This document shows, piece by piece, positions 1 to 45,171 of a DNA stretch of 45,171 nucleotides (the stretch's first letter is position 1; the number at the start of each line of letters is the position of its first letter). This stretch comes from Escherichia phage TR2: the sequence record OP251154.1. One strand, written 5' to 3'. Position numbers and translations under genes: made by a program. The notes under the pieces were generated by a model. That model had not been told where the DNA came from, made no database searches, and worked only from the letters and a program-made list of their open reading frames with translations.

Positions 1-46
1 TTGTGACCTCCTTTGTTGATGTAAGATTATACCATATTACAGACGT

Positions 47-69
47 AAAAAAGCCCTCAAGAAGAGGGC
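47..69 (-). terminator. rho-independent terminator (minus strand)
   Basis: Inverted repeat GCCCTC-aagaa-GAGGGC at 53-69 preceded on plus strand by an A-run, giving a T-run on the minus strand. Confidence 0.45.
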
Positions 70-122
70 GAATTATCGAACAACAACGAGAGAGATGAAA
101 CAACCAGAGAGTAGAACTTCTT

Positions 123-305
123 TTACTTTCGCTCACGAACGTAAGTTACTAGGAATTTGTGGTAATCCGGGTCGGCACCAGACATTACCTTTACTTTCGC
201 TACCGCTTCCTCTGAGGACTCAGCGGTAACCGACGCGATAAATTCTTGCTGACAATTCTTACAGCTTCGACCCATTAAGCGGATTGAAAGCTTAACATCC
301 CACAT
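123..305 (-). CDS. hypothetical protein (60 aa)
   Basis: ORF track only; no recognisable motif. Confidence 0.3.
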   Translation of the reverse strand: MWDVKLSIRLMGRSCKNCQQEFIASVTAESSEEAVAKVKVMSGADPDYHKFLVTYVRERK

Positions 306-321
306 AATGAATCTCCTTTAT

Positions 322-397
322 TGGTGTTCCGCGCTGGACTCGAACCAGCAACTAAGACTTAGGAGGTCTTTGCGTTATCCTGTTACGCCAGCAGAAC
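322..397 (-). tRNA. tRNA-Arg (anticodon CCU, reads AGG)
   Basis: Manual cloverleaf on minus strand: acceptor GTTCTGC/GCGGAAC (one G-U), D-stem GCGT/ACGC with GG in loop, anticodon stem AAGAC/GTCTT, loop CT-CCT-AA, T-arm GCTGG-TTCGAGT-CCAGC, 3' ACCA. Confidence 0.8.
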
Positions 398-596
398 AAA
401 TATTTAAGTAGCGATTGCGCTATTTAAAGATTGCTGGTTACGCCTCCAGCGTCGAGTTTCTCGACCGGTTATTGAGGTTTGCGCCTTATCCTCTTTGGCC
501 AACTTGCCATGTACGCTACTTAATTAGCAATGGACTTTGTGTTGCGCTCCGTGCGCCGTTCTAGCTTGGCTAGCTCGTATGCCTACGAGATAAATA

Positions 597-863
597 CTAA
601 TACTTTCCTGTCAGTGATGCAATCTCTTTTTCATACCTAACGAAATCCAGCGTGCTTTTACAAACCATTAGGTCAACATTTGAGTTAACAATCTTCCCGC
701 AAACTGTACAGATTAGCTTTGTCCTACACCCATCCTGATACGAATCCTCAAACCAACTTATGCGTCGGAATAATCTATATTTATGCTTATGTAGAATTCC
801 GACCTTAAACATTAGTGACTTGATCTTATTCATAAAGGCTATTCCCATTCTCATCGTGGTCAA
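597..863 (-). CDS. hypothetical protein with CxxC motif; start uncertain
   Basis: ORF track; overlaps upstream ORF by 38 nt so the true start may be an internal Met (around 833-848). Confidence 0.35.
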   Translation of the reverse strand: MTTMRMGIAFMNKIKSLMFKVGILHKHKYRLFRRISWFEDSYQDGCRTKLICTVCGKIVNSNVDLMVCKSTLDFVRYEKEIASLTGKY

Positions 864-1062
864 CGCGACCTTTTCTATACCCAGCTATCCACACAAATTT
901 ATCCCTCGCAATTAGCGTAGACACAGGACCCCAAACCTGAGTAATCAGTGCTGCGACAACTTTATCGTCTTTCTTCTTTGCGCCCAACTTTCCGTACTCG
1001 TCGTTCAGCTTGTCAGCCTGGTGCTTAACTGCGTTGAAGTATGCATCTTCTAATCCAAACAT
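826..1062 (-). CDS. hypothetical protein (78 aa)
   Basis: ORF track; lies directly downstream of a promoter cassette with leader CAAACAACGAGAGGG before the ATG. Confidence 0.45.
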   Translation of the reverse strand: MFGLEDAYFNAVKHQADKLNDEYGKLGAKKKDDKVVAALITQVWGPVSTLIARDKFVWIAGYRKGRVDHDENGNSLYE

Positions 1063-1091
1063 TTTCTGCCCTCTCGTTGTTTGATTGGTTG

Positions 1092-1134
1092 ATTATATGG
1101 CATCAATGCCTGTCACGTTTAGCTATTCGTGCTG
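1092..1134 (-). promoter_or_regulatory. operator/-10 promoter cassette (CAGCA-N5-AGCTA operator, 22-nt spacer, TATAAT)
   Basis: Gene-orientation read: CAGCAcgaatAGCTA, 22 nt, TATAAT (plus 1092-1097 attata). Operator doubles as the C-terminal codons STNS-stop of the upstream ORF. Confidence 0.55.
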
Positions 1135-1277
1135 TCTACATCTGGCCCTCTATCAAAAGTTGCTAATACTTCGTCTGTATCGCCATCGCACTCAAACGTG
1201 TCACCGTATTTCTCATTGAAGTAGATTAAATCCTCAACAAATTCATCACATTTCGGGAATAAACATGTGTTAAGCAT
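1119..1277 (-). CDS. small Cys-containing hypothetical protein (52 aa)
   Basis: Manually translated minus ORF MLNTCLFPKCDEF...DSTNS, below the 60-aa track cutoff; ATG overlaps stop of upstream ORF. Confidence 0.4.
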   Translation of the reverse strand: MLNTCLFPKCDEFVEDLIYFNEKYGDTFECDGDTDEVLATFDRGPDVDSTNS

Positions 1278-1428
1278 TTTTCTTATCCTCGCCCTTATTT
1301 AGACCACGCTTTTCCTCACGCTCTTTCCAGATATTCATTAACTCAAAGTACATCATGGCAATCTCGCCAGTCTCAGCATCATCCATCATTCTCTTAGCCC
1401 ACTGGCTTGGTTTTTCGTAGTTATCCAT
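1270..1428 (-). CDS. small hypothetical protein (52 aa)
   Basis: Manually translated minus ORF MDNYEKPSQWAKRMMDD..., packed between neighbours. Confidence 0.4.
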   Translation of the reverse strand: MDNYEKPSQWAKRMMDDAETGEIAMMYFELMNIWKEREEKRGLNKGEDKKNA

Positions 1429-1446
1429 CTAATCGCATGCCTTAAA

Positions 1447-1581
1447 TTATAGTTCGTTAGAATGCGTTTTAGCATCGTCTACGGCTGCCGAAATAATGTA
1501 AATAATCGCGAAGCCCAGAGACCACAACAACCATGGTAAAGCCTCAACTAAAACCTCGTCAATCATAAGTTCCGTGTGCAT
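1447..1581 (-). CDS. small predicted membrane protein (44 aa)
   Basis: Manually translated minus ORF MHTELMIDEVLVEALPWLLWSLGFAIIYIISAAV... with one hydrophobic helix. Confidence 0.4.
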   Translation of the reverse strand: MHTELMIDEVLVEALPWLLWSLGFAIIYIISAAVDDAKTHSNEL

Positions 1582-1591
1582 CTTGTTTTCC

Positions 1592-1771
1592 TTAAATCTT
1601 GTTCAATTGCTCAAGAATTTCGTAAGCCAGTTCTCTAGCTTGCTCTTCTGTTAAGTGGATGGTGTGAACTTGAGGTTCGTCACGCATTCCGCAAGCCTGA
1701 GCAATGATGAATGTTGCGTAGCCGTCGGAGTGGTTAGCCTGAAGTTTTGGTTCTGATTGTCGGAATCTCAT
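1592..1771 (-). CDS. small hypothetical protein (59 aa)
   Basis: Manually translated minus ORF MRFRQSEPKLQANHSDGYATF...; ATGA start/stop overlap with upstream gene (1768-1771). Confidence 0.45.
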   Translation of the reverse strand: MRFRQSEPKLQANHSDGYATFIIAQACGMRDEPQVHTIHLTEEQARELAYEILEQLNKI

Positions 1772-1977
1772 TCTTCAATTACCTCGTATTCGCCTTCTTG
1801 CAAACTAATCTCGTTGCCGATTGTTACTAAATCAGTATCACGAATCGCCTGAACTGATAAGCTACCATCTTTATACTTACCGGAAACATCAACAATATCA
1901 CCAACCTGGAAACCGCAATCAGCAAGGCTAAGTTCGTCACCATCAGCAATGTCAACTTCAATAATCTTTATTCTCAT
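1768..1977 (-). CDS. hypothetical protein (69 aa)
   Basis: ORF track; first gene after a promoter cassette. Confidence 0.5.
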   Translation of the reverse strand: MRIKIIEVDIADGDELSLADCGFQVGDIVDVSGKYKDGSLSVQAIRDTDLVTIGNEISLQEGEYEVIEE

Positions 1978-2008
1978 CTCTATACTCCATCGTGTTGTCG
2001 ATGTGGTA

Positions 2009-2051
2009 ATTATGCCGGATTTCTCCGGCGATTGTTTAGCAATTCGTGCTA
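2009..2051 (-). promoter_or_regulatory. operator/-10 promoter cassette (TAGCA-N5-TGCTA, 22-nt spacer, CATAAT)
   Basis: Plus 2037-2051 TAGCAattcgTGCTA; -10 at plus 2009-2014; leader CATCGACAACACGA then ATG at 1977. Confidence 0.55.
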
Positions 2052-2531
2052 TTGTCCATTCAGGAGTAATTTAGCTTCCCGATAAAACTCCATCGCCGCC
2101 TCAACCTCTTCCTCGCTGTACCGCAAGTGGTATGGTAGTCTACTAGGATGCTTACCTTCGTAGACCTTGAAGTTAGGCTCCCAACACTCATTGAGTATTG
2201 CGGGGTGAACATAAACCTTATCGCCAATTAGACATGTAACATTCATCTTGTCGAGCTCTGGGATTAGCTTGTCCTTGATGAGCAACATCACTCCATTACG
2301 CCCAACAAAAGGCTTAACCTTTCGAGCTCCTTCATATACAGACCTGACACCAACCACTCCTTTCCCGTTAACTCCCATCTTCCTGATGATTTTAATTAGC
2401 ACACCAAGCTCATCACCTGAGTACACATCTGACGTATCAATCGAACCCCAGAATGGCGTTGACTGACGATACCCATTTGCATTTATTACGATTCTGACTG
2501 GCGAAAGTCCATCTTGCCTGGCGATATTCAT
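2049..2531 (-). CDS. internally truncated paralog of the P-loop replication protein at 5132..6715
   Basis: N-terminus (RIVINANGYRQSTPFW) and C-terminal ~70 aa (NGKGVVGVRSVYEGARKVKPF...TCLIGDKVY) match the ends of the 527-aa protein; central Walker-A region absent. Confidence 0.6.
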   Translation of the reverse strand: MNIARQDGLSPVRIVINANGYRQSTPFWGSIDTSDVYSGDELGVLIKIIRKMGVNGKGVVGVRSVYEGARKVKPFVGRNGVMLLIKDKLIPELDKMNVTCLIGDKVYVHPAILNECWEPNFKVYEGKHPSRLPYHLRYSEEEVEAAMEFYREAKLLLNGQ

Positions 2532-2572
2532 TACCTGCTATGCTGTTAGTTTGTCATCGTTAAAGTTAAACA

Positions 2573-3061
2573 TTATTTAATCTCCTCAATAATCAAACGA
2601 TAATCTTTAATTGCTTTCATTGCTGCTGCGAGCGCTTCACCTTCATACTCCGATAGGTCTGGCATGACTTTCGATATCTTAGCCTTGAATTCAGTTATTG
2701 CCTCCACCTTGATTGCGTCATTGGTCTTCTTCCTGATACCAATGTTGGCAGTTCCAGGGATCAGTTTGATAACCAGCCTCTTGCCATCTGATAGCTCTGT
2801 CACGCCGAATTGGCTTTTGCCGCTATCTTCATCATAGTAGTGAGTCGCCTTCATACCTGCGTCTCTCAACTCAGGCATGCGAGCTGTTGTGTTGTAGATG
2901 TATGAGCTCTTAAGCTTCTTAATGGAACCATCTTCACTGCCAATAATGCTTTCAATTTTCCTTAGTGAAACGCTGAATTGCTTATCTTCAGATTTTAGAG
3001 CCTGTTTTACCATCTCGCGAATCACTTGACCCAATGTTGCTTTCTCATTCATGTTTATCAC
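2573..3061 (-). CDS. hypothetical protein (162 aa)
   Basis: ORF track; sigma70-like TTGATT-17-TATGAT upstream on minus strand (around plus 3080-3110). Confidence 0.55.
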   Translation of the reverse strand: MINMNEKATLGQVIREMVKQALKSEDKQFSVSLRKIESIIGSEDGSIKKLKSSYIYNTTARMPELRDAGMKATHYYDEDSGKSQFGVTELSDGKRLVIKLIPGTANIGIRKKTNDAIKVEAITEFKAKISKVMPDLSEYEGEALAAAMKAIKDYRLIIEEIK

Positions 3062-3322
3062 TCCTCTCGTTTAGGTTGAATCCATCATATATCGACTTAC
3101 ACACGTAATCAAGTGTAATTTTTGGTAACTTTTAGGTGTGGTTACGCGAAATGGCATCCTAGCCAAGCTATAGCTAAATGTAGTTTGTGGTAACGCCTGT
3201 AACGCATAAATTGGGTGGGGTTGCCCAATACTGGCTATTTCTTCCATAAAATTGCAGATATGTACTCTGATAGGAAAAAACATATATATAGCAGAAGAGC
3301 ACCAGTTACATGACTTACATAC

Positions 3323-3350
3323 AATAATAATAATAATAATAATAATAATA
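3323..3350. repeat. (AAT)9 microsatellite followed by (AT)7 at 3359-3372
   Basis: Perfect trinucleotide repeat read directly; produces the spurious poly-Ile ORF 3252..3509. Confidence 0.9.
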
Positions 3351-3396
3351 GAAAGAAGATATATATATATATTAAGTACTTATAGTGTAAGTCTAG

Positions 3397-3422
3397 GCGT
3401 AGCTTCGCGTAACTCGCGTAAC
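3397..3422. promoter_or_regulatory. three phased iterons GCGTAGC/GCGTAAC/GCGTAAC
   Basis: Starts at 3397, 3407, 3416 (10- and 9-bp spacing); more GTAACGC/GGTTACG sites at 3126-3210 and 3453-3463. Confidence 0.5.
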
Positions 3423-4705: not shown

Positions 4706-5058
4706 TGACTACTACCATAACTAAAAATTTCATTAGCAAAGACAACCAACTGTTTAAAGCTCGCGTTAAAGATGGTGTCGAGCAAATCAAGAAAGATGGC
4801 AAATGGGTTAATCTGGAAGAACGTGGTAAATACATTAAGACCAGAACGCTTTACGTGACACATGTTAACCACAAATCTGGCGTTAAGAAGTATTTCAAAG
4901 AAGGAAAGAGATACCAGGTGCTAATGCATAGCGGGATGGGTCAGTCTGCTGGTTACATTTACGACGAAGATGGTAATGCATGGCAGCTATATCGAAGCGA
5001 AGATGTTGGTTTCTACACTCTTTGCCAGACTTACCTATTTGAATCATCTTACAAATAG
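4705..5058 (+). CDS. hypothetical protein (117 aa)
   Basis: ORF track. Confidence 0.55.
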   Translation: MTTTITKNFISKDNQLFKARVKDGVEQIKKDGKWVNLEERGKYIKTRTLYVTHVNHKSGVKKYFKEGKRYQVLMHSGMGQSAGYIYDEDGNAWQLYRSEDVGFYTLCQTYLFESSYK

Positions 5059-5131: not shown

Positions 5132-6715
5132 ATGTTTGATTTCAACGAAGATAAACTATCTGTTGAACAAGTTATGGCGATTGCCGCGACCGACAACCTC
5201 CCACCGCTTCGCGTTGCCATTAATGCAAATGGCTATCGGCAGTCTCAATCATTCTGGAAAACACCTGTGGAGATTGACGCAGGTAATGACAAGTACCCTG
5301 TAATATCTCTAGGCAATGACATTGATGTTGTTGGTAAGCTCTCGGCAAATATTGCTCGCTCAGTTCAGTTCCCAGAGTCATCAGCATACATGCACTTTTT
5401 GGGTTGTGTGTCCGCTGCGATGCTAGGGCGCTTTACTGTTGAGTATCACGGAACCCAGCAGCCAACATCGCTTTACGTGGTAACTAGCCAGCCGCCATCT
5501 ACTGGTAAGTCAGCCATTAACTCTCTGTCAATTGCGCCAATGATTGCTGAGACTGAGCGTTTGAACGAGGTGCGTAAACGTGACCGCAAAAAGATTATGG
5601 CTAAGCTGTCTGCGCTAGCAAAAGAAATGAAACAGGAGAAGTCACCATCTGAGATGGCTTCACTGTTTGAGGAGAAGGAAGATTTAGAGGAAAAGCTCGA
5701 GAAGCTGTGCGATATCGTATTCCCGGTCTCAGATACTACGCCAGAAGGTCTTGCACGAATCAACAACCGCCAGGGTAACTTTGCGGTCATCTCGGATGAG
5801 GCAACAAGCGTCAACTCATTATTGGGCATGACATACGGTGATGGTTCCAAGAAAACGAACAGCGAGCTTGTACTTAAAGCGTGGGATGCTGGTAACGTAT
5901 CTATTGCCCGCGCTAACGCAGAAAACAACATGAGTTTCGTGGCAATGGGGTGCATCTCTGTAATTGCTCAGGATGAAACAATCAATGCGATTATGAATGC
6001 TGGTGCGCGTGGTATTGGTGTTTCCGAGCGTTTCCTTCTGGTGCGTGAAAAGTCATTTCTTGGAGACCGCGTGTTTGTTGATGAGAATGGCGATTCAACA
6101 TACGAGGCTATTGATGATGGTCTTAAAGCAGACTATTTCCGTCTCGTTCATGAAATTATGAATGAAGTTGAAGTGAAACTGACAGTAAGTGCGTCATCCA
6201 TGCGCTACCTTAACCGAGCTCGCCAGGAAATGGAACCGCATCTTGGTGATGGCGGTAAATATTCCCACACGATGTTACGTGGTGCTCTTGGTAAATTTGA
6301 TAAGCAAGCAATCCGTATTGCCTCAGTATTGCACGTTATTCGCAACTGGTTCGCACCGGCAGGGTCGAGTCCGCAGAAATCAAGAGAGATTGAGCTTGAA
6401 ACAATGCAAGAAGCGGTTATGATTTTCCACGAGTTAAGCAAGACTTATTTGTCGTCCGCTAGTGCTGCTGGTCATGCTGGTGATAATGCTGAAATGAATA
6501 AGCTGGTTGATATCCTGATTAAGCAAGGTAAGAATGGGAAGGGTGTTGTTGGCGTTCGCTCACTGTATGAAGCAGCACGCAAAGTTAAACCTTTTGAAGG
6601 ACAGGCTGGCGTAATGACTCGCATCAAGGACCACTTGGTTCCTATGCTTGATGAGAAAAACTATACATGCCTGATTGGTGATAAGATTTACATTAATCCG
6701 CGATTGTTGGGGTGA
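5132..6715 (+). CDS. putative replication initiator/helicase-like P-loop NTPase (527 aa)
   Basis: Walker-A-like TSQPPSTGKSA; has its own promoter cassette; N- and C-terminal segments duplicated in 2049..2531. Confidence 0.6.
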   Translation: MFDFNEDKLSVEQVMAIAATDNLPPLRVAINANGYRQSQSFWKTPVEIDAGNDKYPVISLGNDIDVVGKLSANIARSVQFPESSAYMHFLGCVSAAMLGRFTVEYHGTQQPTSLYVVTSQPPSTGKSAINSLSIAPMIAETERLNEVRKRDRKKIMAKLSALAKEMKQEKSPSEMASLFEEKEDLEEKLEKLCDIVFPVSDTTPEGLARINNRQGNFAVISDEATSVNSLLGMTYGDGSKKTNSELVLKAWDAGNVSIARANAENNMSFVAMGCISVIAQDETINAIMNAGARGIGVSERFLLVREKSFLGDRVFVDENGDSTYEAIDDGLKADYFRLVHEIMNEVEVKLTVSASSMRYLNRARQEMEPHLGDGGKYSHTMLRGALGKFDKQAIRIASVLHVIRNWFAPAGSSPQKSREIELETMQEAVMIFHELSKTYLSSASAAGHAGDNAEMNKLVDILIKQGKNGKGVVGVRSLYEAARKVKPFEGQAGVMTRIKDHLVPMLDEKNYTCLIGDKIYINPRLLG

Positions 6716-12075: not shown

Positions 12076-12492
12076 TTTTCTAATCATCTCTGCGAATGCA
12101 GCAAGAAAACCATCTCTGCCGTAGGCAACTCCTGCGAAACCGCCTGATTCCCTTACGCTTTTTAGGAATGACTTTTGCTCATCACTTACTGGGCTAGCCT
12201 GTGTTTTCCCAGCCCTCTTTAGCTCTATTGCGCCAAATGGATAACTTCCTCGTAATGACTCAGGTATTAGAAATAGGCAGTCTGATACGCCTTTAAGAAG
12301 TCCTTTAGCCTGGTCTTTCCTTGCCTGACCAATGCTCTTCATTGATTCATTAACTGTGTGCCAGTAAACAACCTGCGGATAGTTATACTTAACCCAATCA
12401 GAGCAAAAGATTTGTTCGTCGTCTTCCTTCGGGCATGACTTCACCGGGCCGCCATAGAACTCGAGGTAGTCAGTTTTGTCTGTAACTTTCAT
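12073..12492 (-). CDS. VRR-NUC domain nuclease
   Basis: PD-(D/E)XK-like motifs (GVSDCLFL, GAIELKRAGK, SPVSDEQKSFL); ATGA overlap with helicase stop. Confidence 0.6.
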   Translation of the reverse strand: MKVTDKTDYLEFYGGPVKSCPKEDDEQIFCSDWVKYNYPQVVYWHTVNESMKSIGQARKDQAKGLLKGVSDCLFLIPESLRGSYPFGAIELKRAGKTQASPVSDEQKSFLKSVRESGGFAGVAYGRDGFLAAFAEMIRK

Positions 12493-14483
12493 AACAATTC
12501 TCCAAAATTCTTAAAAGCGATTATATCTTTACCTTTGCCGTTTTTTCTATGTGTAACCTGCACTGGTGCGCGGAACTTATCTACGTTCGCCATAATCATT
12601 CTCGCATTGCGAAGTCTGCCAATTCTTGTGGCTTCAGCGCGATTCTCTATATGAGCAAGGCAGAAGTTCTTCCATAGCACGCTGCAAACTCGATGGTCAG
12701 ACTCGGGGTTGAAGAATTCCCATGCATTAAACCGATCTCCGTTATGAGCCATGATATTGTACTTAACAACAATTCCGGTTTGATTCTTACTTAAGCCAAC
12801 TTGAAAATCATAAACAAGAAGGTAATCACCACGACGATACATCTTACCTGTAAGGTTAGCATTGGGGTCTTTAAGCATCTCTCCGCACTCTCGACAGACC
12901 TTCGCTGCTATATCATTGCGAGTCCCGCACCCTTTTTTGATAATAGCCTTTGTCTGCAGGTCTGTAATATCTTCACAAACTGTAAAAGTAAAGAAGTGCT
13001 CACATCTCTTTCCGTCAATCTTATTTCCGCATCTACGAGCAAAAGGCGAATTCTCGTATGAGCAAATTGGGCACACTCGAACCTCTGAATCACCATTGCG
13101 TGATGACTTAAACTTCTCGGCCTGAATCTCTTCAATTATTGGATCAAAGTAAAGTTCAGCCATATCATCAAGTGCGCCAGCAAAGTCCAGGACTAAGTGG
13201 TCATCCTTTTTCATACCAATTTCAATATGTTTCTTCTTGAGAATTCGCATTCCACGACCAAGAAGCTGAATCATTAATGTCAGGCTTCCAATCTTGCGGA
13301 GTATGACACTTGTGTCCCACGGAGGCACCGAAACGCCTGTGGTTAAGCATCCAATCTGAAAAATAATCTTGTACTTTCCGGTCTGGCATTCATCTAGAAT
13401 TTCCCTTCTCTTCTTCTCACCAGTGGAATCAGTGATTATCGCGTAAGGATAACCATCGGGTAGAGCAGCAGCCGCTTCATCGCAGTGCATTTTACCAGCG
13501 CAAGTTACCAGTGCGGCGTTACGTGTTTCAAGTATTTTGATAACGAACCCCATTATCTTTTGTGTCATCGTCTGGTTTTCGTGAATCTTTGCAGCCATTG
13601 CATCCATTTCTTTTTTGCTGAAATCCTTAACGCCATCACTTCCATCAGGTGCAAACTCGCTAAGGTCATAACCCAAATCACCAACCTCACCGTAAACAGT
13701 TGGAACAACGAATCCCAAATCAACCAGGTAACTGGTCGGAACTTGCATTACCGTCTTGCGCCAGAAGCCACGAATATTTGGGTTACTAACTACAATGTGG
13801 TCGTTGTTACGATACGGGCTACCAGTCAAGCCGAATATACGGAGCTCGCGACCATACTTCTCTTTGCAGCGGCGCTTCATTTCAGTGATGATTAGTGTGT
13901 ACTGCGCACGACCAGTTCCAAGCAATCCGGTATTCACTCCATCCTTGAAAACCATTTCGCCTTTCTTGGTGCTCATTTGCTCAAATGTCTCTTCGTTCTC
14001 TTCAGCTTCTACGATATCCATGTGGTCCACCATGTGTGCCTCATCTATTGCGATAACCGCAGGAACATAGTCACCAAGACCCTTAAACAATCCATTGGCA
14101 GCCGTTCCTTCACTAGCCACTATGGTTGGGTAATAAACTGATTTAACGTTAAGGCCAGCGCAATATACGCTATTACGAATGCCAAAGCTGCGAAGTTCTT
14201 CAGCGTTCTGACTGATAATTTCAGACTGGCGAGAAAGTACCATATAAGGAAGGCCAAGTTGCTCCATGCGTTTACCAATCATGGCAATAATGATTGTCTT
14301 GCCAGCCGATACAGACAGGTCTGCGATGAACGGAGCTTCGTACTTAGCAATATTCTTGCCGATTTGGTCGAATGTCACGCACTGGAATGGATACGGCGTA
14401 ATATCTCCAAACTGATAGTCTCTCTGAATCTGCTTAATCTTTTCTTGGTCAAAGTTTGCCACTAAGCGTTCTACTGGAAGCAT
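12489..14483 (-). CDS. SF2 ATP-dependent helicase with Cys-rich zinc-ribbon insert
   Basis: Walker A SVSAGKT, DEAH box IDEAHM, Cys cluster CPICS...CGNK...CRECG. Confidence 0.8.
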   Translation of the reverse strand: MLPVERLVANFDQEKIKQIQRDYQFGDITPYPFQCVTFDQIGKNIAKYEAPFIADLSVSAGKTIIIAMIGKRMEQLGLPYMVLSRQSEIISQNAEELRSFGIRNSVYCAGLNVKSVYYPTIVASEGTAANGLFKGLGDYVPAVIAIDEAHMVDHMDIVEAEENEETFEQMSTKKGEMVFKDGVNTGLLGTGRAQYTLIITEMKRRCKEKYGRELRIFGLTGSPYRNNDHIVVSNPNIRGFWRKTVMQVPTSYLVDLGFVVPTVYGEVGDLGYDLSEFAPDGSDGVKDFSKKEMDAMAAKIHENQTMTQKIMGFVIKILETRNAALVTCAGKMHCDEAAAALPDGYPYAIITDSTGEKKRREILDECQTGKYKIIFQIGCLTTGVSVPPWDTSVILRKIGSLTLMIQLLGRGMRILKKKHIEIGMKKDDHLVLDFAGALDDMAELYFDPIIEEIQAEKFKSSRNGDSEVRVCPICSYENSPFARRCGNKIDGKRCEHFFTFTVCEDITDLQTKAIIKKGCGTRNDIAAKVCRECGEMLKDPNANLTGKMYRRGDYLLVYDFQVGLSKNQTGIVVKYNIMAHNGDRFNAWEFFNPESDHRVCSVLWKNFCLAHIENRAEATRIGRLRNARMIMANVDKFRAPVQVTHRKNGKGKDIIAFKNFGELL

Positions 14484-14579: not shown

Positions 14580-15062
14580 ATGTGTGAAATCGACAAGCGA
14601 ACTATTAACGGCAATAACGGAACCGTGCGCACAAAAGACAAAAAGCAACGCAAACGACCATCAGGCTACTACGTATTGAAAGATGAGGTAAAGGCTGGGC
14701 TACGTGCTCGCCTGGAGATGGTTCTTGATTTCTACGGTACAAAGGCGAACATCGCAAAGCAGTTAAATGTGTCCAACCAAGCTGTATCGGAATGGTTTAA
14801 CCGCGGTATGATTTCGGCTCGAGGGGCTCAGCGAGCACATAATGCGTACAAGCGAAATAAGGAGGGATTTCGAGCTACATTCTGCCGACCAGACCTGCAA
14901 TTCGACGGAAACGGAAAACCGCTAACACTTCGATGCAAGAAGCGCCATATGCTTCGCGTAGTTACCGATGCAGAACTAGCAACAAAGCCACCCTGTCGAC
15001 CATGGCGAAAGAATAAGGCCGCTAACGAGGCAGCGCGAAAAGCTAAAGAGCAAGGGAAATAG
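14580..15062 (+). CDS. putative HTH DNA-binding protein (Cro/YdaS-like)
   Basis: HTH-like segment KANIAKQLNVSNQAVSEWFNRG; basic C-terminal half; first gene of plus operon. Confidence 0.5.
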   Translation: MCEIDKRTINGNNGTVRTKDKKQRKRPSGYYVLKDEVKAGLRARLEMVLDFYGTKANIAKQLNVSNQAVSEWFNRGMISARGAQRAHNAYKRNKEGFRATFCRPDLQFDGNGKPLTLRCKKRHMLRVVTDAELATKPPCRPWRKNKAANEAARKAKEQGK

Positions 15063-18155: not shown

Positions 18156-18185
18156 AAAAGCCCCGAAAGGGGCTTTATCTTTTAT
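18153..18185. terminator. bidirectional rho-independent terminator
   Basis: A-run, GCCCC-gaaa-GGGGC, T-rich run; between convergent genes. Confidence 0.7.
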
Positions 18186-18604
18186 CAGAAAGGAATATTG
18201 TCAGCTTCAAACTGCTGTTGTGGCTGCGGCTGTCGTTGTTGCTGCTGCTGCTGTTGTTTTTTCTGCTGCTGCTGCCCACCTTCACCGCGCTGACTAAACT
18301 CAAGTCGAGGATTGTTCATATTAATGGTTACATACGTCTTACCATCTTTATCACGAACATCTACAGCCAAAGTTTCGCAACTTACGCTAACAACCTTACC
18401 TTCCTGAAACGCTTCGTCATACCATGCAAGCATTGACTCTTTTGCGAAGAAGGCGGCTCGATAGTTACTGTAATGCGCCTGTTCATCCTTATCCTTGTAG
18501 CGCTCACTCAAATCAACCGCGTACATTTTCCAGGTGCCATTTGCATTCTGACCTTCTTTAGTAAACGGAGCGCGACGGATAACACCAGTAATTACGTGAC
18601 TCAT
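18185..18604 (-). CDS. single-stranded DNA-binding protein
   Basis: OB-fold-like N-terminus, Gln-rich linker, acidic tail ending DNIPF. Confidence 0.8.
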   Translation of the reverse strand: MSHVITGVIRRAPFTKEGQNANGTWKMYAVDLSERYKDKDEQAHYSNYRAAFFAKESMLAWYDEAFQEGKVVSVSCETLAVDVRDKDGKTYVTINMNNPRLEFSQRGEGGQQQQKKQQQQQQQRQPQPQQQFEADNIPF

Positions 18605-18644: not shown

Positions 18645-19295
18645 TTAGAATGTATCGATTTCTTGAGATTGTACTTCAGCCTTTTCTTCTTGAACAGCTT
18701 TTTGTGCAACCTGCTTAGGTTTCGCTGGGTTGAAGCCCGTCATTGCACTAGCCTCAATCTCTGCTTTTCGCTCGATTATGTGAGGTTCGAAAACTTTCCA
18801 ACCCGCCGCATCAAGAGACTGTTTAGCCTCTTTCCAAACATTGCGGAGCTCATCAAGATTACTGCACTTATCAAGATCACGTTTAAAGTCTTTAACGCCC
18901 TTAGCCGCGAGATTACCATCGTCATCTGCCTGGCTAAGACCTAACGCTGCTGTGATTCCGTAACGACGCGCATATGTAAGGGAGGATCCATAACCCTGAG
19001 CGTCTTGCTTACTGATTGGTACAATCATTAAGAAGCTAACCCACTCCCCAGATTCTGCATGAAACAACTTGGTTTCAACCTTTAGGCGGCTTGTTGATTC
19101 ATCATCGATTACGCTCTGGAACATCACCAAACCACACTCATCTAAACCTGGCTCAACGGCCGCTAGTACGTCTTCAAGGGTAGCGTACTTGTTTTTTAGG
19201 TGAGAGTTCTGCTTTGACTTTTCAGCCTTCGCAAATAGTGATTTAGCGGTGTGTAGCGCGTTTAAAATTGATTTGCATGATTCTGAAATTTGCAT
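18645..19295 (-). CDS. ERF-family single-strand annealing protein
   Basis: KNKYATLEDVL and SSLTYARRYGITAALGL resemble conserved blocks of P22 Erf; adjacent to exonuclease and SSB. Confidence 0.7.
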   Translation of the reverse strand: MQISESCKSILNALHTAKSLFAKAEKSKQNSHLKNKYATLEDVLAAVEPGLDECGLVMFQSVIDDESTSRLKVETKLFHAESGEWVSFLMIVPISKQDAQGYGSSLTYARRYGITAALGLSQADDDGNLAAKGVKDFKRDLDKCSNLDELRNVWKEAKQSLDAAGWKVFEPHIIERKAEIEASAMTGFNPAKPKQVAQKAVQEEKAEVQSQEIDTF

Positions 19296-35901: not shown

Positions 35902-36300
35902 TTAGTCAAGACGAACATAGAAACGAACTGGAATAAACCAGCCAGATTTTGACTTCACTACCGGGTGAACTACTCCGCCCTCATAAATGTAGCCTGTGTC
36001 AAGCATTGTACCATCAAGCATTGATTCTGCCAATTGATTCGCCAACCTCCTTGCGCTATCAACACCATCACCTGGTGAGAAAAATACAGAGACCTGAACC
36101 ATGCCGACATAGTATTTGCACTTGCGACTCAAGCTATAGGTTACGGTATCGGCCTCAGTGTAGTCGTACTTCAGCCACATACCGCCATTACTTGGAGGAG
36201 AGAATGCTACGTTTTCGTAGGAGATTGGATACCTGACTGGAAACGTTTTAACCAAATCAGTCACAAACCTCCTTGATGCTAAAGATAGCTCATACTGCAT
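35902..36300 (-). CDS. putative tail terminator / tail completion protein
   Basis: Position and size only. Confidence 0.4.
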   Translation of the reverse strand: MQYELSLASRRFVTDLVKTFPVRYPISYENVAFSPPSNGGMWLKYDYTEADTVTYSLSRKCKYYVGMVQVSVFFSPGDGVDSARRLANQLAESMLDGTMLDTGYIYEGGVVHPVVKSKSGWFIPVRFYVRLD

Positions 36301-36746
36301 TATCGTTTACTCCTCGCTTCAGCAACGGCTTCCTCAAAGTATCGACCAAGTCTGATATTAACTACACCAAGTACACCTGCTGGCGCTTGCTGCGATGCAC
36401 CGTATTCAAGATCTGACGCATAATCTAGCCTGTTGGTTATGTAGATAACCTTTGTTGCTGGTGAGTTAGCTACTGCTCTGGCTTGTCTTGCAAGGTACCT
36501 TTTTGTATCACCGCCAGTCTTGTCGTAATCATTTAACGACTGTACTGCTGGTGAGTTTGCTGTAATCTGCCAGTTAGCCTTAAACCTACCAGTATCAACA
36601 GGAGATAAATCAACAATGGCGTTAGCTGCTTTAATTACAGTGCCTGAAACAATTTCAGAAAAACCATCATCAGCTCTTGAAATCCAGTCATTGATAGAGT
36701 TCGTGAATGTAGCTAAGCCACCAACATTATTAGCCATAAGCAGCAA
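36300..36746 (-). CDS. putative neck / head-tail joining protein
   Basis: Position and size only. Confidence 0.4.
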   Translation of the reverse strand: MLLMANNVGGLATFTNSINDWISRADDGFSEIVSGTVIKAANAIVDLSPVDTGRFKANWQITANSPAVQSLNDYDKTGGDTKRYLARQARAVANSPATKVIYITNRLDYASDLEYGASQQAPAGVLGVVNIRLGRYFEEAVAEARSKR

Positions 36747-37113
36747 TCCTCCTCAGAATTGGCCTGTATGCGACTACAGTACCTGTTGGTTTCACTGGTC
36801 TCGGGTCGACTACAGTGTAAGTTTCATCGTCCACAATAATCCTGTAGCCCTGTAAGATTGGGACTTCGGAAGTGAAGATTCCACGCTTATCGCCAAACTG
36901 AATATACTCACCATCAATATCTCTGGTTTTAATCTCCCTCACCAGCCCCTTGATTAATGCAGTGCCGCCAGATACAGGAACCTCGACACCATCGACAATC
37001 TCCACCCCACCTTTACCAGTTTCCATGGTAAACGTACCATCGCCATCACTAAAGATATTGATTCCCGTTCGCATTAATGATTCGATTTGAGAGTAATTCA
37101 TCGGCAACCGCAC
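36730..37113 (-). CDS. putative head closure protein
   Basis: Position and size only. Confidence 0.4.
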   Translation of the reverse strand: MRLPMNYSQIESLMRTGINIFSDGDGTFTMETGKGGVEIVDGVEVPVSGGTALIKGLVREIKTRDIDGEYIQFGDKRGIFTSEVPILQGYRIIVDDETYTVVDPRPVKPTGTVVAYRPILRRIAAYG

Positions 37114-37810: not shown

Positions 37811-38419
37811 TTATAGCACTAAACAATCGCCTTCGTGAACCCCATTGGCGTTTCCGTACTCGCCGAATATTTCTTTACACCAACTGTCGTAACACTCCTT
37901 AGCCTCTTCAATTGTGTCAAACCTTTTAGCCATCCTTACATCTCCGCAATCCTTTTGTATCTGGGCTTTCCACTTCACCCTTGATTTATCGTAGCTAACA
38001 CCTTTAAATCCACTCTTGTTCCTTTTGTATAGGCTCGTATTCATCATGTTCTCACTTCGAGTAACAACCCTTAGGTTTTCCACCCTATTGTTTAATGAGT
38101 TACCATCAATGTGATCTATCTCACCTGTCGGCCAACTCCTGTGATGATAAAACCACTTTAACTTATGCATTGAAACGTGAAACTTCTTCCCGGAAACTTT
38201 AATACATAGCTTCCACATCTTACTTTCTGGGCATGTTGGGTTTGGAGTGAATTCACCTCCAGCAACCTTTCCGGCGTACCTTGAATTCCATACATTTGTA
38301 AACCTATCATTTCCCGGCTTTACTTTCCATGTCATAACGGGACTTTCAGAATCTGATTCAAGTCTTGATGTTAGCTCTTCGTGAGTTAGTAGTTCTTCAA
38401 TTTTCATTTTCGCCTCCAT
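37811..38419 (-). CDS. HNH homing endonuclease with AP2 domain
   Basis: IDHIDGNSLNNRVENLRVV plus AP2-like KSGFKGVSY...W.A.I. Confidence 0.8.
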   Translation of the reverse strand: MEAKMKIEELLTHEELTSRLESDSESPVMTWKVKPGNDRFTNVWNSRYAGKVAGGEFTPNPTCPESKMWKLCIKVSGKKFHVSMHKLKWFYHHRSWPTGEIDHIDGNSLNNRVENLRVVTRSENMMNTSLYKRNKSGFKGVSYDKSRVKWKAQIQKDCGDVRMAKRFDTIEEAKECYDSWCKEIFGEYGNANGVHEGDCLVL

Positions 38420-38478: not shown

Positions 38479-39423
38479 TTAGGCAAAGGTAATTCCTTTG
38501 ATAGCTGCCACTGTAAGAGGGCGATATAAAATCAAACCTGTCGCCTTAGAGGTTACAGGGAAGCGGAAGTGAAGATCACGAGGCTGACCAGGTAAAACGT
38601 TTGTAACTTCCGGAATCTCGATGCTCATGTTGAGCGGATCCTTTTCAAACGCCAGCGCAGCTTTACCGCCAGCACCATCGTAGTTATCCAGGACCTGCAT
38701 AAAGCGCAGGGTTACACCTGGGTTGTTACGAGTAAACAACTCGCCATAGCTCAGGGTTGTATTATCAACAAGGCGCTGCATTACACGGCGAGCGGAAGCT
38801 GGCAGCAGAATGTCAGTTACATGGTGGAAGCCCTGTGTGCTGGTTTCTACAGCATCAATCATTGCGGTAACGTCGTTAACCGCGTTAATTGGATTGCTCC
38901 AGTTTGGAGTTGCAACAACGTTGTTGATGTTCGGCTGGTTAAATACGCTTACGATGCCGTGAGGTGCAGAGCCAGACCATACCAGTTTATCAAGCAGGTT
39001 GTCGTGAGCTTCAAAAGCCAAAGCCTGTTTGCGAGCGGACAGTGACTGACCAGTAGCAGCGCCAACTTTAATCTCATCAACTGAGATCATAAACGCATTA
39101 CCGAAGCGGAATACTTTACCCTGCTTCTCGGTCATGAAAGCATCAACCATCGGCAGGTCGTCAGAGTAATCAGCGATGATCTGAGCAATACCAACACCAT
39201 CGAACTCATTGTATTCGAAGTATTTCGCGTGACCAGGGATTTCGTTGGTTACTGGGAAGATGTTGACAACTGAGTTGTCTGCGTATTCTTTTTCGTAAGC
39301 GCGATTCAGTGATGCGGTTAACTGCTTAACGGTCCAGATACCAGCAGCATCAGCCTTATCTACGCCCATTTGCTCTAGGTGAGCGGTGATTTTTGCTTGT
39401 TCTGCATCAAATTTAATGGCCAT
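38479..39423 (-). CDS. major capsid protein
   Basis: 314 aa in canonical position after portal, protease/scaffold and decoration candidates. Confidence 0.7.
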   Translation of the reverse strand: MAIKFDAEQAKITAHLEQMGVDKADAAGIWTVKQLTASLNRAYEKEYADNSVVNIFPVTNEIPGHAKYFEYNEFDGVGIAQIIADYSDDLPMVDAFMTEKQGKVFRFGNAFMISVDEIKVGAATGQSLSARKQALAFEAHDNLLDKLVWSGSAPHGIVSVFNQPNINNVVATPNWSNPINAVNDVTAMIDAVETSTQGFHHVTDILLPASARRVMQRLVDNTTLSYGELFTRNNPGVTLRFMQVLDNYDGAGGKAALAFEKDPLNMSIEIPEVTNVLPGQPRDLHFRFPVTSKATGLILYRPLTVAAIKGITFA

Positions 39424-42497: not shown

Positions 42498-44069
42498 TTA
42501 TTTAATTCCTGCTAATCGCATCATTCTCGCTTTAGGGTCTTCTGCGATGTTCAGTACCAGGTTGACAGCCATCGTCAAACAGTCTATCTGGTCATCGTGC
42601 GAGTGAGAATCATCTGCCGTAAATGCTGCAATCTCTGTTAGCAATCCGTTAAGCCAATTTGCTGACTCCGGCAGGATAACGTTGCCAGCCTTAATCTGAG
42701 GAAGTGCACTCATTACGCGAGTCAGCTTGTCGTTATCTGGCACGTATGGCTCGATAGGCGTTCGCATAACCCTTCCTGCTGATTGAATCAGACCTATACC
42801 AGATGCTTTCTTCTCGATGATGATTTTACGAAGGATACCATCTGTCTGATTGGATGCCCTTGCCATCCTCTCGAAGTCTAATAGCTCTGCCTCTAGCTCT
42901 GGCGCCTCCCATTTACCACGTCGCTGGTCTAACAGGTAAATCTTGCCATCCTTATAGCCCCAGAGTTGCAGTACACTAAAGTCACTGTAGCTTTTAGTGG
43001 TCATCGCGGTATCAAGCGTCATGAACCTGTAATCGTACTTAGCTGGCGGTCGCAGGGTGTCACTAATGCGCTGGAGCCAGTCTACGTTAATCAGGTTGCC
43101 ACCTAGAGCTACAGGCTCCTGAGCATATTGACTAAGGAATGTGTAAGGATCAGCATCACGCATGGCTATCAAGTCTTCTATTGATTCCTTTGCTGGGAAG
43201 TAGCTGTAATACTTAACCCCATCGCGCTCTACAAATGGCGAAGAAAGAACGTCATCTATAAACTGCTGCCTAATCCATTCAGGAAGCGTGTCGGCGTATT
43301 CTTCCGTGACTATTGCTGGAATTTTAACTACGTCGAATTTTATCCCCATCTGCCCGGACTCCATGAAGTGACTAGTGTCAAGAACATGAAGCCTTTGCTG
43401 AACGGCTAATATTGGAGTCTCTTTTCCCTTAACTGAACTCGCCCTTCGTGAGCGAATTGTGTTCTTGAGAAGCATATTAACAGCCTCCCTCCTTACATTA
43501 CTAAGCGCATCATCTGGCTTCAGCGGGTCATCAAGCATTATGCATCCACTGTAATCATCGGTCATGTAACCACCACGCGAACCAGTCACCTGTCCAGCCA
43601 TTGCCTTAGATATCGATTCAAACCTCACCTTTCCATCTTCATCTAGAACCTGAATCTCATCATCCCTGCAAGTCCCAAATGAGCAAGGCCAAAGTTCCTG
43701 AAACTCCTTTGACTTAATCAGGTCGCGCACACGCTTTGAGTTACGCTTAACCAATGAGTCAGAGAACGACAAACTAAGATTTCTAACCTTCTTAATCTTG
43801 ATCATGCTATATACAGGGAAATGTATACTAAAGAGCTCGGTTTTGGCTGATCCAGGAGCTACGTTTATGATGGTATCCTTTCTCTTACCATCAAGAATCT
43901 CATCTATGACACGACAAAGGTATTTAGCATGCCAATTCATTTTGAATCTCTCGCCTTGCGTTATCTGAAAGAAGCACCGCAAGAACCCTTCGAAACTATG
44001 CTCAGAGATTGCCTTTATAGCCATCTTTTCAGCGTGAGTCAGTTCATCCCAGACTATTAATTCACTCAT
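42498..44069 (-). CDS. terminase large subunit
   Basis: N-terminal ATPase Walker-A-like NVAPGSAKT and C-terminal nuclease acidic motifs (DQIDCLTMA); followed by portal. Confidence 0.85.
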   Translation of the reverse strand: MSELIVWDELTHAEKMAIKAISEHSFEGFLRCFFQITQGERFKMNWHAKYLCRVIDEILDGKRKDTIINVAPGSAKTELFSIHFPVYSMIKIKKVRNLSLSFSDSLVKRNSKRVRDLIKSKEFQELWPCSFGTCRDDEIQVLDEDGKVRFESISKAMAGQVTGSRGGYMTDDYSGCIMLDDPLKPDDALSNVRREAVNMLLKNTIRSRRASSVKGKETPILAVQQRLHVLDTSHFMESGQMGIKFDVVKIPAIVTEEYADTLPEWIRQQFIDDVLSSPFVERDGVKYYSYFPAKESIEDLIAMRDADPYTFLSQYAQEPVALGGNLINVDWLQRISDTLRPPAKYDYRFMTLDTAMTTKSYSDFSVLQLWGYKDGKIYLLDQRRGKWEAPELEAELLDFERMARASNQTDGILRKIIIEKKASGIGLIQSAGRVMRTPIEPYVPDNDKLTRVMSALPQIKAGNVILPESANWLNGLLTEIAAFTADDSHSHDDQIDCLTMAVNLVLNIAEDPKARMMRLAGIK

Positions 44070-44071
44070 TG

Positions 44072-44578
44072 TTACGCTCTCGTATTTAGGTAGCCTTTAT
44101 TTTCAGAGCCATGATTTTCATGATATCCGTTCAATTTGTCATACTGCGACCTTGCCAATGCAGCCTCCTCTATAGTGTCCTTGTAGCATATGAAGACTGT
44201 TTTACCAAACTCTCTAGCCTGAACAAGCCATCTATTCTCTCTTTTGCACCAGCTTACACCGTTTATTCCGCTTTTATTTCTTGATGATAGTGATCTGTTA
44301 TTTGAGTTCTCTTTATTGCTTACTAACCTTAAGTTCTCTATTCTATTGTCACTTCTATTTTGGTTTATGTGATCTATGTGCATGCCTTTAGGGATTGCTC
44401 CATTGTGCATCTCCCACACCACCCTGTGACACCTGTATGCTTTTTGTCTATACTTTAGTATCACATAGCCAAATTTATCAACTCTTCCGGCCACCTCTCC
44501 AACCTTTGATACATTTGCTACTTTTACCTTTCTTATTAAAAGCCCGTCTCTATATTCAAAAATATCATGCCAATTCAT
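44072..44578 (-). CDS. HNH homing endonuclease with AP2 domain, between small and large terminase genes
   Basis: IDHINQNRSDNRIENLRLV plus AP2-like NKSGINGVSW. Confidence 0.8.
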   Translation of the reverse strand: MNWHDIFEYRDGLLIRKVKVANVSKVGEVAGRVDKFGYVILKYRQKAYRCHRVVWEMHNGAIPKGMHIDHINQNRSDNRIENLRLVSNKENSNNRSLSSRNKSGINGVSWCKRENRWLVQAREFGKTVFICYKDTIEEAALARSQYDKLNGYHENHGSENKGYLNTRA

Positions 44579-44649: not shown

Positions 44650-45171
44650 CAGCTTACTAATCACAGACTCCAGCGCTTCCTTCATCGTGCCAACGTCGTT
44701 AGCTGAAGAGTTATTGCTTATAGTAATCTCCTGCGGCTTATCGATGCCAAGTTCTTTGGAAATCATGCCAGGGTTAACAATGCCAGACGCTGCCAGCTGA
44801 TACTTCTGCTCGCGAATCACGGAATCAATGAATGCAATTACCTCGTCATAACCCTCCGACTTCCTCCATTTCTCTATTGCGCTATGGGTAACACCGCAGT
44901 AAAGGCAGAATCCTGTTAGTGTGAAGACTCGTGGCTTGTGCACCAGATTCTCGGTTACGACACCCTGGAAGCTGGCTGTCTCAATTGCCTTGATTGCCTG
45001 GCTCTCAGCCCATGAGAAGTATTTCACGGCCAGGTCGAATAGCTGCTCTGGGGTCATTATTCGGTTTTTGGACAGAGTTGTAATGTCAGAATACTTTTTG
45101 TTGTACATGGCTTTGAAGTTGCCAGAGCGAATCTTTTCTTGCGCCTGGCTGGTGAAGTTTTCGTCTTTCAT
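44647..45171 (-). CDS. putative terminase small subunit
   Basis: 174-aa ORF directly upstream of HNH and large terminase; start codon sits at the window edge (45169-45171). Confidence 0.5.
   Translation of the reverse strand: MKDENFTSQAQEKIRSGNFKAMYNKKYSDITTLSKNRIMTPEQLFDLAVKYFSWAESQAIKAIETASFQGVVTENLVHKPRVFTLTGFCLYCGVTHSAIEKWRKSEGYDEVIAFIDSVIREQKYQLAASGIVNPGMISKELGIDKPQEITISNNSSANDVGTMKEALESVISKL

Follow-up and report, generated by a model that had tools for sequence, protein, structure and literature searches.

We analyzed a stretch of 45,171 nucleotides, referred to here as the window, which carries a single tRNA gene on the minus strand close to its first base. Read along that strand, a run of small ORFs (3061 to 597) is followed by a spacer (596 to 398), the tRNA gene (397 to 322), a 60-aa ORF, a terminator, the promoter-like motif TGGTATAAT and the terS gene. 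The features of this locus are listed below in minus-strand order, with the basis for each given in parentheses.

3084-3112, minus strand: candidate sigma-70 promoter TTGATT-17-TATGAT, a weak match (consensus scan, 9/12 matches).
597-863, minus strand: last small ORF of the minus-strand run ahead of the tRNA (ORF list; TR3 annotation).
398-596, minus strand: leader or spacer, about 200 nt long, non-coding and rich in hairpins (RNA fold, RNAalifold, no credible ORF).
322-397, minus strand: tRNA-Arg(CCU) gene, 76 nt (ARAGORN; Rfam RF00005; cloverleaf with compensatory changes; identity to the annotated tRNA-Arg of TR1 and TR3).
123-305, minus strand: conserved 60-aa ORF, homologue of T1 ST56 and CEB_EC3a gp70 (ORF list, protein comparison).
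53-69, minus strand: intrinsic terminator GCCCTC-ttctt-GAGGGC followed by T6, which ends the unit holding the tRNA (terminator scan).
26-34, minus strand: extended -10 promoter-like motif TGGTATAAT (sequence and five-phage alignment).
44647-45171, minus strand: terS, small terminase, first gene of the late packaging and structural operon and anchor for the comparison of loci (TR3 annotation).

ARAGORN, run over all 45,171 bases of the window, called a single tRNA-Arg with the anticodon cct at 322-397. A covariance model search with Rfam matched RF00005 at 325-397, scoring 59.3 bits where the gathering threshold is 29 (E = 1.9e-10, model positions 1-71 of 71), and RF00005 was the sole Rfam family to reach its gathering score in the window. 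The original prediction, made from the letters alone, was of a well-formed tRNA with anticodon CCU and the only tRNA in the window; both points were borne out by these searches. Its location and identity were right, and the strand, which it had left unstated, is the minus strand, with the anticodon CCT at 363 to 361 and an encoded 3' CCA at 324 to 322.

The cloverleaf is canonical, with stems of 7, 4, 5 and 5 bp, G18 and G19 in place, a variable loop of 4 nt and the discriminator base A73. The acceptor stem (GUUCUGC/GCGGAAC) contains a single wobble pair, U5-G68; the D stem is GCGU/ACGC with the D loop AACAGGAUA, in which A20 follows G18 and G19; the anticodon stem AAGAC/GUCUU closes the 7-nt loop CUCCUAA, and the T arm reads GCUGG-UUCGAGU-CCAGC. 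Alignment of 12 phage homologues showed that pairs 2-71, 12-23, 27-43, 28-42 and 49-65 had changed on both sides with pairing kept, each appearing as two different Watson-Crick pairs. Nineteen of the 21 stem pairs had no non-standard combination among these homologues, while pair 3-70 had one and pair 13-22, which is naturally variable, had five. The identity elements of E. coli ArgRS are A20, C35, U36 or G36, and A73 or G73. The set is complete in the window tRNA (A20, the anticodon C34 C35 U36, and A73), and A20, C35, U36 and A or G at position 73 are kept in all 12 homologues. These results demonstrate that 322-397, which matches RF00005 as an elongator class I tRNA, is a real arginine tRNA gene with a structure far beyond chance.

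The tRNA is closely packed with its downstream neighbor, the ribosome binding site of the 60-aa ORF (AAGGAG) beginning 7 nt past the CCA. The 60-aa protein shares 82% amino acid identity with gp70 of CEB_EC3a and 41% with T1 ST56 (E = 5e-13), and its gene marks the downstream edge of the slot in which the tRNA lies. The terminator at 53-69 is kept in all five aligned phages and is annotated at the matching place in CEB_EC3a and T1. Between the terminator and the terS ribosome binding site AAGGAGG (13 to 7) sits TGGTATAAT, and the terS start codon lies beyond the circular junction, at 45171. The 10-nt block ATGGTATAAT could be aligned without gaps across all five phages; its one variable base is position 3 of the -10 hexamer of the motif, where three of the five have C instead of T, and the other nine are invariant. 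We infer that TGGTATAAT is a putative late promoter for terS.

On the upstream side, TR3 labels 237 nt of the ORF at 597-863 as a 'transcriptional repressor'. Searches of the three small ORFs neighboring the tRNA against Pfam gave no matches, so that neither this label nor the GenBank label 'DUF3667' of the 60-aa ORF was reproduced. The candidate promoter at 3084-3112 lies in a divergent intergenic region where the small-ORF operon of the minus strand (3061 to 123) begins. The consensus scan found promoter-like sites in 1-3400 to be no more numerous than in shuffled sequences, and it returned no promoter match within 398-700, next to the tRNA. A conserved TTGCAT-N17-TAnTAT just upstream of the spacer fits only about 7 of 12 consensus positions and is unproven as a promoter. 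By its position the tRNA seems to be the last gene but one in the operon ahead of the late packaging operon, and it would be co-transcribed with the small ORFs. The same slot synteny of the T1-like (Drexlerviridae) locus was found in the five-phage alignment and in the annotations of TR3, CEB_EC3a and T1.

The spacer at 398-596 has a predicted folding energy of -57.5 kcal/mol (z = -2.73 against shuffled sequences). RNAalifold, applied to the spacer together with those of five UCU-bearing relatives (described below), gave 40 pairs, 8 of them with double-sided changes. The ORF list held no credible ORF within 398-596. The possibility that this interval contains a further tRNA, intact or degenerate, or some known RNA family was rejected, since the Rfam scan of 398-596 at E <= 10 returned only noise (snoRNA, plastid and sar families, E > 2). 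The spacer is possibly a precursor leader of the tRNA or a co-transcribed stable RNA, and it may be needed for expression of the tRNA or have a function of its own.

Over its first 3 kb the window is 100% identical to TR3; identity is 99.6-99.8% with Rao1 and CY1 and 94.7% with TR1. These are all siphoviruses of E. coli, and TR3 is classed in the Drexlerviridae, Braunvirinae. For 12,000-36,999 there was no identical record, the best being TR3 (93.6% over 74% of the query) and Rao1 (88% over 79%), which indicates that the window is a mosaic member of the TR3-like group. These matches place the window among the T1-like coliphages (Drexlerviridae, Braunvirinae), near TR3, Rao1 and CY1, and at about 45 kb it is a complete genome. 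Because it begins directly upstream of the terS start (45171, minus strand), it looks like a whole circularly permuted genome that was opened at terS.

The tRNA is 100% identical to the GenBank-annotated tRNA-Arg of TR1 and TR3. A BLAST search with the tRNA found about 36 T1-like coliphage records with a homologue that is 93-100% identical over all 76 nt, and four further records, the Opt-79/Phleasolo group, at 82%, making 40 records of the CCU-type tRNA in total, all of them T1-like siphoviruses. Carriers of the near-identical gene include Rogue1, JK06, phiEB49, AHP24/AHS24/AHP42/AKS96, Sf12, Sd1, C119, e4/1c and TR1/TR3. The Rogue1 paper described an arginyl-tRNA "recognizing the rare codon AGG" (Kropinski et al., 2012; PMC3496638), and one arginyl-tRNA apiece was reported for four more phages (Niu et al., 2014; PMC4070988). 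The tRNA-Arg(CCU) of T1-like coliphages is therefore an already known feature, annotated in TR3 and TR1 and described in 2012 for Rogue1, for which the codon reading was published as well. The gene of the Rogue1/JK06 group is the same one, with the same anticodon and the same position ahead of a small conserved ORF, the terminator and terS. The window copy differs from five other aligned CCU copies in having A27-U43 instead of G27-C43, and its flanks are of the Braunvirinae type, closer to those of CEB_EC3a than to those of phiKP26.

A pattern search with the T arm and acceptor stem shared by these genes recovered 11 viral contigs, in which ARAGORN called five tRNAs with anticodon CCU (76 nt) and six with anticodon UCU (77-78 nt). 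Identity between the two types is 73-78%, and within either type it is 92% or more. The UCU type occurs in CEB_EC3a/Guelphvirus, an Rtp-sized relative, the vB_EcoS series and MSK, where it is a homologous gene in the same slot. Both types share the phage-specific acceptor stem GNUCUGC/GCGGANC and the T arm CUGGUUCGAnUCCAG, and the UCU-bearing relatives share with the window the structured upstream leader and the downstream ORF. The UCU type has one extra nucleotide in the D region, which is absent from the 77-nt Rtp-sized copy, and one in the variable loop. Its anticodon reads both AGA and AGG, and its phages prefer AGA over AGG. In T1 the genes ST57 and ST56 are only 22 nt apart and a scan of the whole genome found no tRNA, which indicates that the slot is empty there.

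The host tRNA with the same anticodon, argW, decodes AGG only, as the phage tRNA would, and resembles it in the loop CUCCUAA, the D-loop motif GGAUA with A20, A73 and the 4-nt variable loop. Nevertheless, the two are only 62-67% identical and differ in all four stems, and argW is a prophage attachment site while the phage gene is not. An origin by capture of argW was rejected, because this identity is lower than that between the CCU gene and the phage UCU allele (73-78%). Between the UCU type and E. coli argU, identity is 76-82%, and the D arm, anticodon arm and variable region are almost the same. Searched with BLAST against 5,426 complete E. coli genomes, the window tRNA matched nothing better than three 35-nt stretches (E = 7), and we rejected capture from the host on this ground; the gene is not a recent host capture. 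The CCU gene is instead probably an anticodon-shifted relative of an argU-like phage gene. A search with the UCU allele of the T1-like slot matched 606 phage records at E <= 1e-5, showing it to be one of a very widespread set of argU-like phage tRNAs. Other coliphage argU-like tRNA-Arg genes are of the UCU type, many of them in multi-tRNA clusters or temperate phages; the argN/argO genes of Stx phages and the tRNA-Arg of large myoviruses such as Felixounavirus follow the same strategy, an arginine tRNA for the AGR codons, which enterobacteria seldom use.

E. coli uses AGG less than almost any other codon, and the host tRNA that reads it is very scarce. We counted codons in genes called identically everywhere, as greedy longest non-overlapping ORFs of at least 100 aa, with no gene finder. 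AGG was the top arginine codon of the window (169 of 11,631 codons in 43 genes, or 14.5 per 1000 and 28.6% of arginine), AGA reached 9.0 and CGG 1.5 per 1000. The same counting in a 50-kb sample of E. coli MG1655 gave 1.1 per 1000 for AGG, which made up 2% of arginine codons, and 2.0 per 1000 for AGA. The premise that AGG is rare in the host was thus confirmed, and the phage uses it about 13-fold above the host level. Four tandem AGG-AGG pairs occur in late genes, two of them in 35902-36300, one in 36730-37113 and one in terL (42498-44069); in E. coli, ribosomes are prone to stall or shift frame at such pairs if the matching tRNA is in short supply. AGG was not enriched at gene starts, where the first 25 codons had it at 9.8 per 1000, compared with 14.4 overall. 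Its spread across the genes of the window was very uneven (chi-square 134, df 45, p = 9e-11). AGG-poor genes included those for the major capsid protein (0 of 11 arginines), the DUF3987 helicase (0 of 27) and a helicase (1 of 38), and AGG-rich ones the tape measure gene (25 of 42), the endolysin gene (7 of 11) and the ORF at 37811-38419 (9 of 11).

We then compared codon usage among relatives. With terS as the anchor, 22 related loci were recovered; most of the loci scored as having no tRNA were scanned about 9 kb on each side of terS, and T1 over its whole genome. Eight CCU-bearing genomes or loci had AGG at 10.0-14.5 per 1000, a median AGA of 7.7 per 1000 and an AGG/(AGG+AGA) ratio of 0.48-0.73. 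In four UCU-bearing ones AGG was 6.8-10.6 and AGA 9.5-12.4 per 1000, with a ratio of 0.37-0.46. The 17 loci in which no tRNA was detected had AGG at 2.2-7.1 and a median AGA of 5.6 per 1000, and AGR codons made up about 18% of their arginine codons, compared with about 40% in the tRNA-bearing ones. The G+C content was similar in all groups (0.44-0.50). Whole genomes gave AGG/AGA values per 1000 of 14.5/9.0 for the window (CCU), 7.0/11.9 for CEB_EC3a (UCU) and 5.0/7.1 for T1 (none). The genome-wide preference for AGG or AGA follows the allele carried. This pattern fits the decoding rules, in that UCU serves AGA and AGG and both rise, while CCU serves AGG alone and AGG rises. Independent lineages are few: the CCU carriers form roughly two clades, the UCU carriers belong to a few genera, and the tRNA-less loci to one large T1 clade. 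The effective sample behind this correlation is therefore small.

The contrast was also seen gene by gene. A tail protein with 84% amino acid identity is encoded with 20 AGG and 5 AGA codons in the window, and with 4 AGG and 19 AGA codons in CEB_EC3a; terL and the genes for the tape measure, portal and minor tail proteins showed the same contrast. At conserved arginine sites in 34 orthologue pairs, AGG in the window stood opposite AGA in CEB_EC3a 33 times and the reverse was found 4 times (binomial p = 1e-6). Against T1, AGG in the window stood opposite CGN 40 times and the reverse was found 5 times (p = 8e-8). A general mutational bias toward G over A could be rejected as the source of the AGG richness, because the other two-codon purine-ending boxes are unshifted. 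Their share of G at the third position was 0.54 in the window and 0.56 in CEB_EC3a for AAR, 0.49 and 0.53 for GAR, 0.65 and 0.67 for CAR, and 0.45 and 0.46 for TTR. Only the AGR box differed (0.62 and 0.37).

We consider it very likely that 322-397 on the minus strand is a functional phage tRNA-Arg(CCU) that supplies decoding of AGG, a case of classical codon compensation. That the tRNA might offset codon bias had been suggested in the original prediction, and this gained support from the roughly 13-fold excess of AGG, from the way AGG usage tracks the presence of a tRNA, and from the flip between AGG and AGA that is linked to the anticodon. The expected course of events is as follows. Transcription would run along the minus-strand operon of small genes, presumably early ones, with the tRNA at its 3' end, upstream of the terminator and the putative late promoter of terS; the tRNA would then be excised by host RNase P and the 3' processing enzymes; no CCA addition would be needed, since the CCA is encoded. 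Host ArgRS would charge it, given that the identity elements are present, and the charged tRNA would decode AGG only. AGG is served by a scarce tRNA in the host yet is the top arginine codon in the phage, so the phage would bring its own supply. CCU is one of two alleles of a single phage tRNA-Arg gene in the conserved slot of T1-like phages, ahead of the ST56-like ORF, the terminator and terS. Expression, processing, charging and any fitness effect of the tRNA are here predicted from sequence. Either direction of cause may hold, the tRNA permitting AGG to drift upward or AGG richness selecting for the tRNA. The tRNA-less T1-like phages still use AGG at 2-6 times the host level and grow well, suggesting that the tRNA is helpful, an optimizer rather than a strict need.

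The original prediction had also raised the idea that the phage tRNA replaces a host tRNA depleted by an anticodon nuclease. The cutting enzyme could be a nuclease or toxin of the retron, PARIS, PrrC or colicin D type, which the phage copy would evade by its different sequence. Such a role has precedents. The tRNAs of other phages have been shown to rescue infection from PARIS and from retron effectors (PMC11464382, PMC11555353), retron Eco2 cuts host tRNA-Arg among other tRNAs (PMC12916289), and colicin D targets tRNA-Arg isoacceptors (PMC10264068). The divergence of the acceptor, D, anticodon and T stems from argW, at 62-67% identity, would also be in keeping with it. However, the signature proposed for escape tRNAs is an anticodon loop changed relative to that of the host (van den Berg et al., 2023; PMC10264068), and here the loop CUCCUAA and the G at position 39 are those of argW, while the loop of the UCU allele, CUUCUAA, is that of argU. 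The escape signature in the loop is therefore absent, and the D and anticodon arms of the UCU allele are almost identical to those of the host, the opposite of what escape predicts. Moreover, the anticodon alternates in step with codon use, which supply and demand explains and defense does not, and a single rare-codon tRNA is unlikely to be the sole target of a nuclease. The proposal found no positive support, and we regard counter-defense as improbable. Counter-defense could in principle act alongside codon compensation.

We think it slightly less probable again that the tRNA serves as a translational timer, which would gate the AGG-rich genes (tail, lysis, terminase) and leave the AGG-free ones (replication, SSB, Erf, major capsid) independent of it. 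The very uneven use of AGG among genes and the position of the tRNA at the end of a presumed early operon, right before the late operon, would suit such a role. But the AGG-poor genes of the window are also short of AGR codons in CEB_EC3a and in the tRNA-less T1 (major capsid 0/0, SSB 0/0, Erf 0/0-1, helicases low). The genes that avoid AGR in the window, CEB_EC3a and T1 are those for the major capsid, SSB, Erf, two helicases and a regulator. Because the avoidance is common to CEB_EC3a and T1, the pattern predates the CCU tRNA and is independent of it, and it looks like ordinary gene-specific codon selection. In addition, the small ORFs upstream of the tRNA contain AGG themselves, and the major capsid and protease genes are late and yet AGG-poor, indicating that AGG content does not follow timing.

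That the gene is a non-functional passenger, either an attP-like tRNA relic or a hitch-hiking pseudogene, is very unlikely: host argW and argU are prophage integration sites, abutted by CPS-53 and DLP12, and the slot is a mosaic that varies among relatives, but the gene is full-length with an intact cloverleaf and CCA, its stems show compensatory changes, and the tRNA is 93-100% conserved while its flanks have diverged to 42-66%, with no homology in E. coli genomes able to support site-specific integration and no integrase among the 72 annotated CDS of the near-identical TR3, a member of a virulent family. A tRNA-derived attP or integration module was rejected on the same two counts, namely that the host genomes (5,426) held no tRNA match and TR3 no integrase.

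The comparison of flanks bears on how the alleles are distributed. The window and CEB_EC3a are 68% identical in the spacer, 78% in the downstream ORF, 77% in the terminator and promoter region and 82% in the tRNA. The corresponding values for the window and phiKP26 are 42%, 50%, 62% and 95%. The flanks are thus CEB_EC3a-like but the tRNA is phiKP26-like, which suggests that the CCU and UCU alleles have been exchanged by recombination at the slot; an ancient polymorphism is the alternative explanation for this local discordance. Going further, and only tentatively, one might see the slot as an exchangeable cassette, in which CCU and UCU swap, extra tRNAs sometimes join, and the AGG/AGA usage of the genome is then re-tuned, with the leader at 398-596 as a possible undescribed non-coding RNA. 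If this were true, T1-like phages would be a tractable natural experiment on the co-evolution of tRNAs and codons.

A single arginine tRNA for AGR codons is textbook phage codon compensation, and the feature alone matters little. The comparative evidence is unusually clean, with no tRNA, UCU or CCU at one locus across sister lineages of one family, and T1-like phages provide a simple setting in which to ask if codon use is driven by a phage tRNA or comes before it. What is added here is modest, namely the CCU/UCU alternation with AGR-specific re-tuning, the evidence for allele exchange and the conserved structured leader. On the practical side, the AGG-rich late genes are predicted to be poorly expressed in standard E. 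coli strains without rare-codon tRNAs, and deletion or swapping of the tRNA is a plausible handle to attenuate or tune therapeutic T1-like phages.

Additional tRNAs were seen next to the tRNA-Arg gene in three relatives. Sd1 has a tRNA-Trp(CCA) just upstream of it, phiEB49 has a tRNA-like 'Val(AAC)' just downstream, and in CEB_EC3a a second, unannotated tRNA (41.3 bits) follows the tRNA-Arg(UCU).

We examined the slot that tRNA-Arg(CCU) occupies, upstream of the small ORF, the terminator and the small terminase gene terS, in the related phages, and found that in some of them it holds a further tRNA-like element beside tRNA-Arg:
L004 (phage CEB_EC3a, NC_047812) 4746-4844, second tRNA just past tRNA-Arg(UCU), matched by Rfam RF00005
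L009 (phage Sd1) 8566-8639, tRNA-Trp(CCA), 5 nt upstream of tRNA-Arg
L011 (phage phiEB49) 3275-3351, 'tRNA-Val(AAC)' call, 1 nt downstream of tRNA-Arg

The second tRNA of CEB_EC3a scored 41.3 bits on RF00005 (threshold 29), and its variable region is enlarged by an insert of about 27 nt. RefSeq has no annotation for it, and ARAGORN did not call it. Its anticodon loop, CUUAUAC, contains the anticodon UAU, which would decode AUA, a rare codon for Ile. In phiEB49 there is also an insertion of about 400 nt ahead of the small ORF. In its behaviour, the slot resembles a variable tRNA cassette.

ARAGORN also called a tRNA-Arg gene on an IMG/VR contig of 46,219 bp:
L038 104-180, tRNA-Arg(UCU)

According to a published comparison, Rtp has no tRNA-Arg gene (PMC8421802). 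If the contig is Rtp (NC_007603), a tRNA-Arg gene is present there but unannotated.

The region ahead of tRNA-Arg(CCU) in the window is non-coding and structured:
398-596, minus strand, spacer, about 200 nt long, that precedes tRNA-Arg(CCU)

This spacer forms many hairpins (fold z = -2.73) and is kept in five UCU-bearing relatives; at least two of the hairpins show double-sided compensatory changes, for example CUAGC/GCUAG, GCCAC/GUGGC and CCAUC/GAUGG. A search of the Rfam families with the spacer gave no match. It may serve as the leader of a precursor, or else represent a stable phage RNA that has not been described before.

A short conserved motif lies on the other side of the slot, between the terminator and terS:
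26-34, minus strand, extended -10-like motif TGGTATAAT, immediately following the terminator and preceding the ribosome-binding site of terS

The motif is kept, with one variable position, in all five aligned T1-like phages, and is likely a constitutive or late promoter of the packaging operon. Two small ORFs on the minus strand, 123-305 and 597-833, have TR3 orthologues that GenBank names 'DUF3667 domain-containing protein' and 'transcriptional repressor'. These names look unreliable; a Pfam scan of both ORFs at E <= 0.01 reproduced neither label.

Analysis of codon usage by gene revealed that AGG is nearly absent (0-1 among 6-38 Arg codons) from six window genes:
5132-6715, DUF3987-helicase
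12489-14483, helicase
14580-15062, regulator
18185-18604, SSB-like
18645-19295, Erf
38479-39423, major capsid

AGA is likewise shunned in all of them but the helicase gene at 12489-14483, and the orthologues of the six genes in CEB_EC3a and T1 show the same avoidance. The window's four HNH endonuclease genes, on the other hand, are rich in AGG and AGA, as exemplified by the gene at 44072-44578, which has 4 AGG, 12 AGA and no CGN codons.

In the collection of phage records, no record gave a collinear, near-identical match over the whole of 12000-36999, the best matches being TR3 (93.6% over 74%) and Rao1 (88% over 79%), whereas the first 3 kb of the window are 100% identical to TR3. Within the TR3/Rao1/CY1/ES group, this genome is mosaic.
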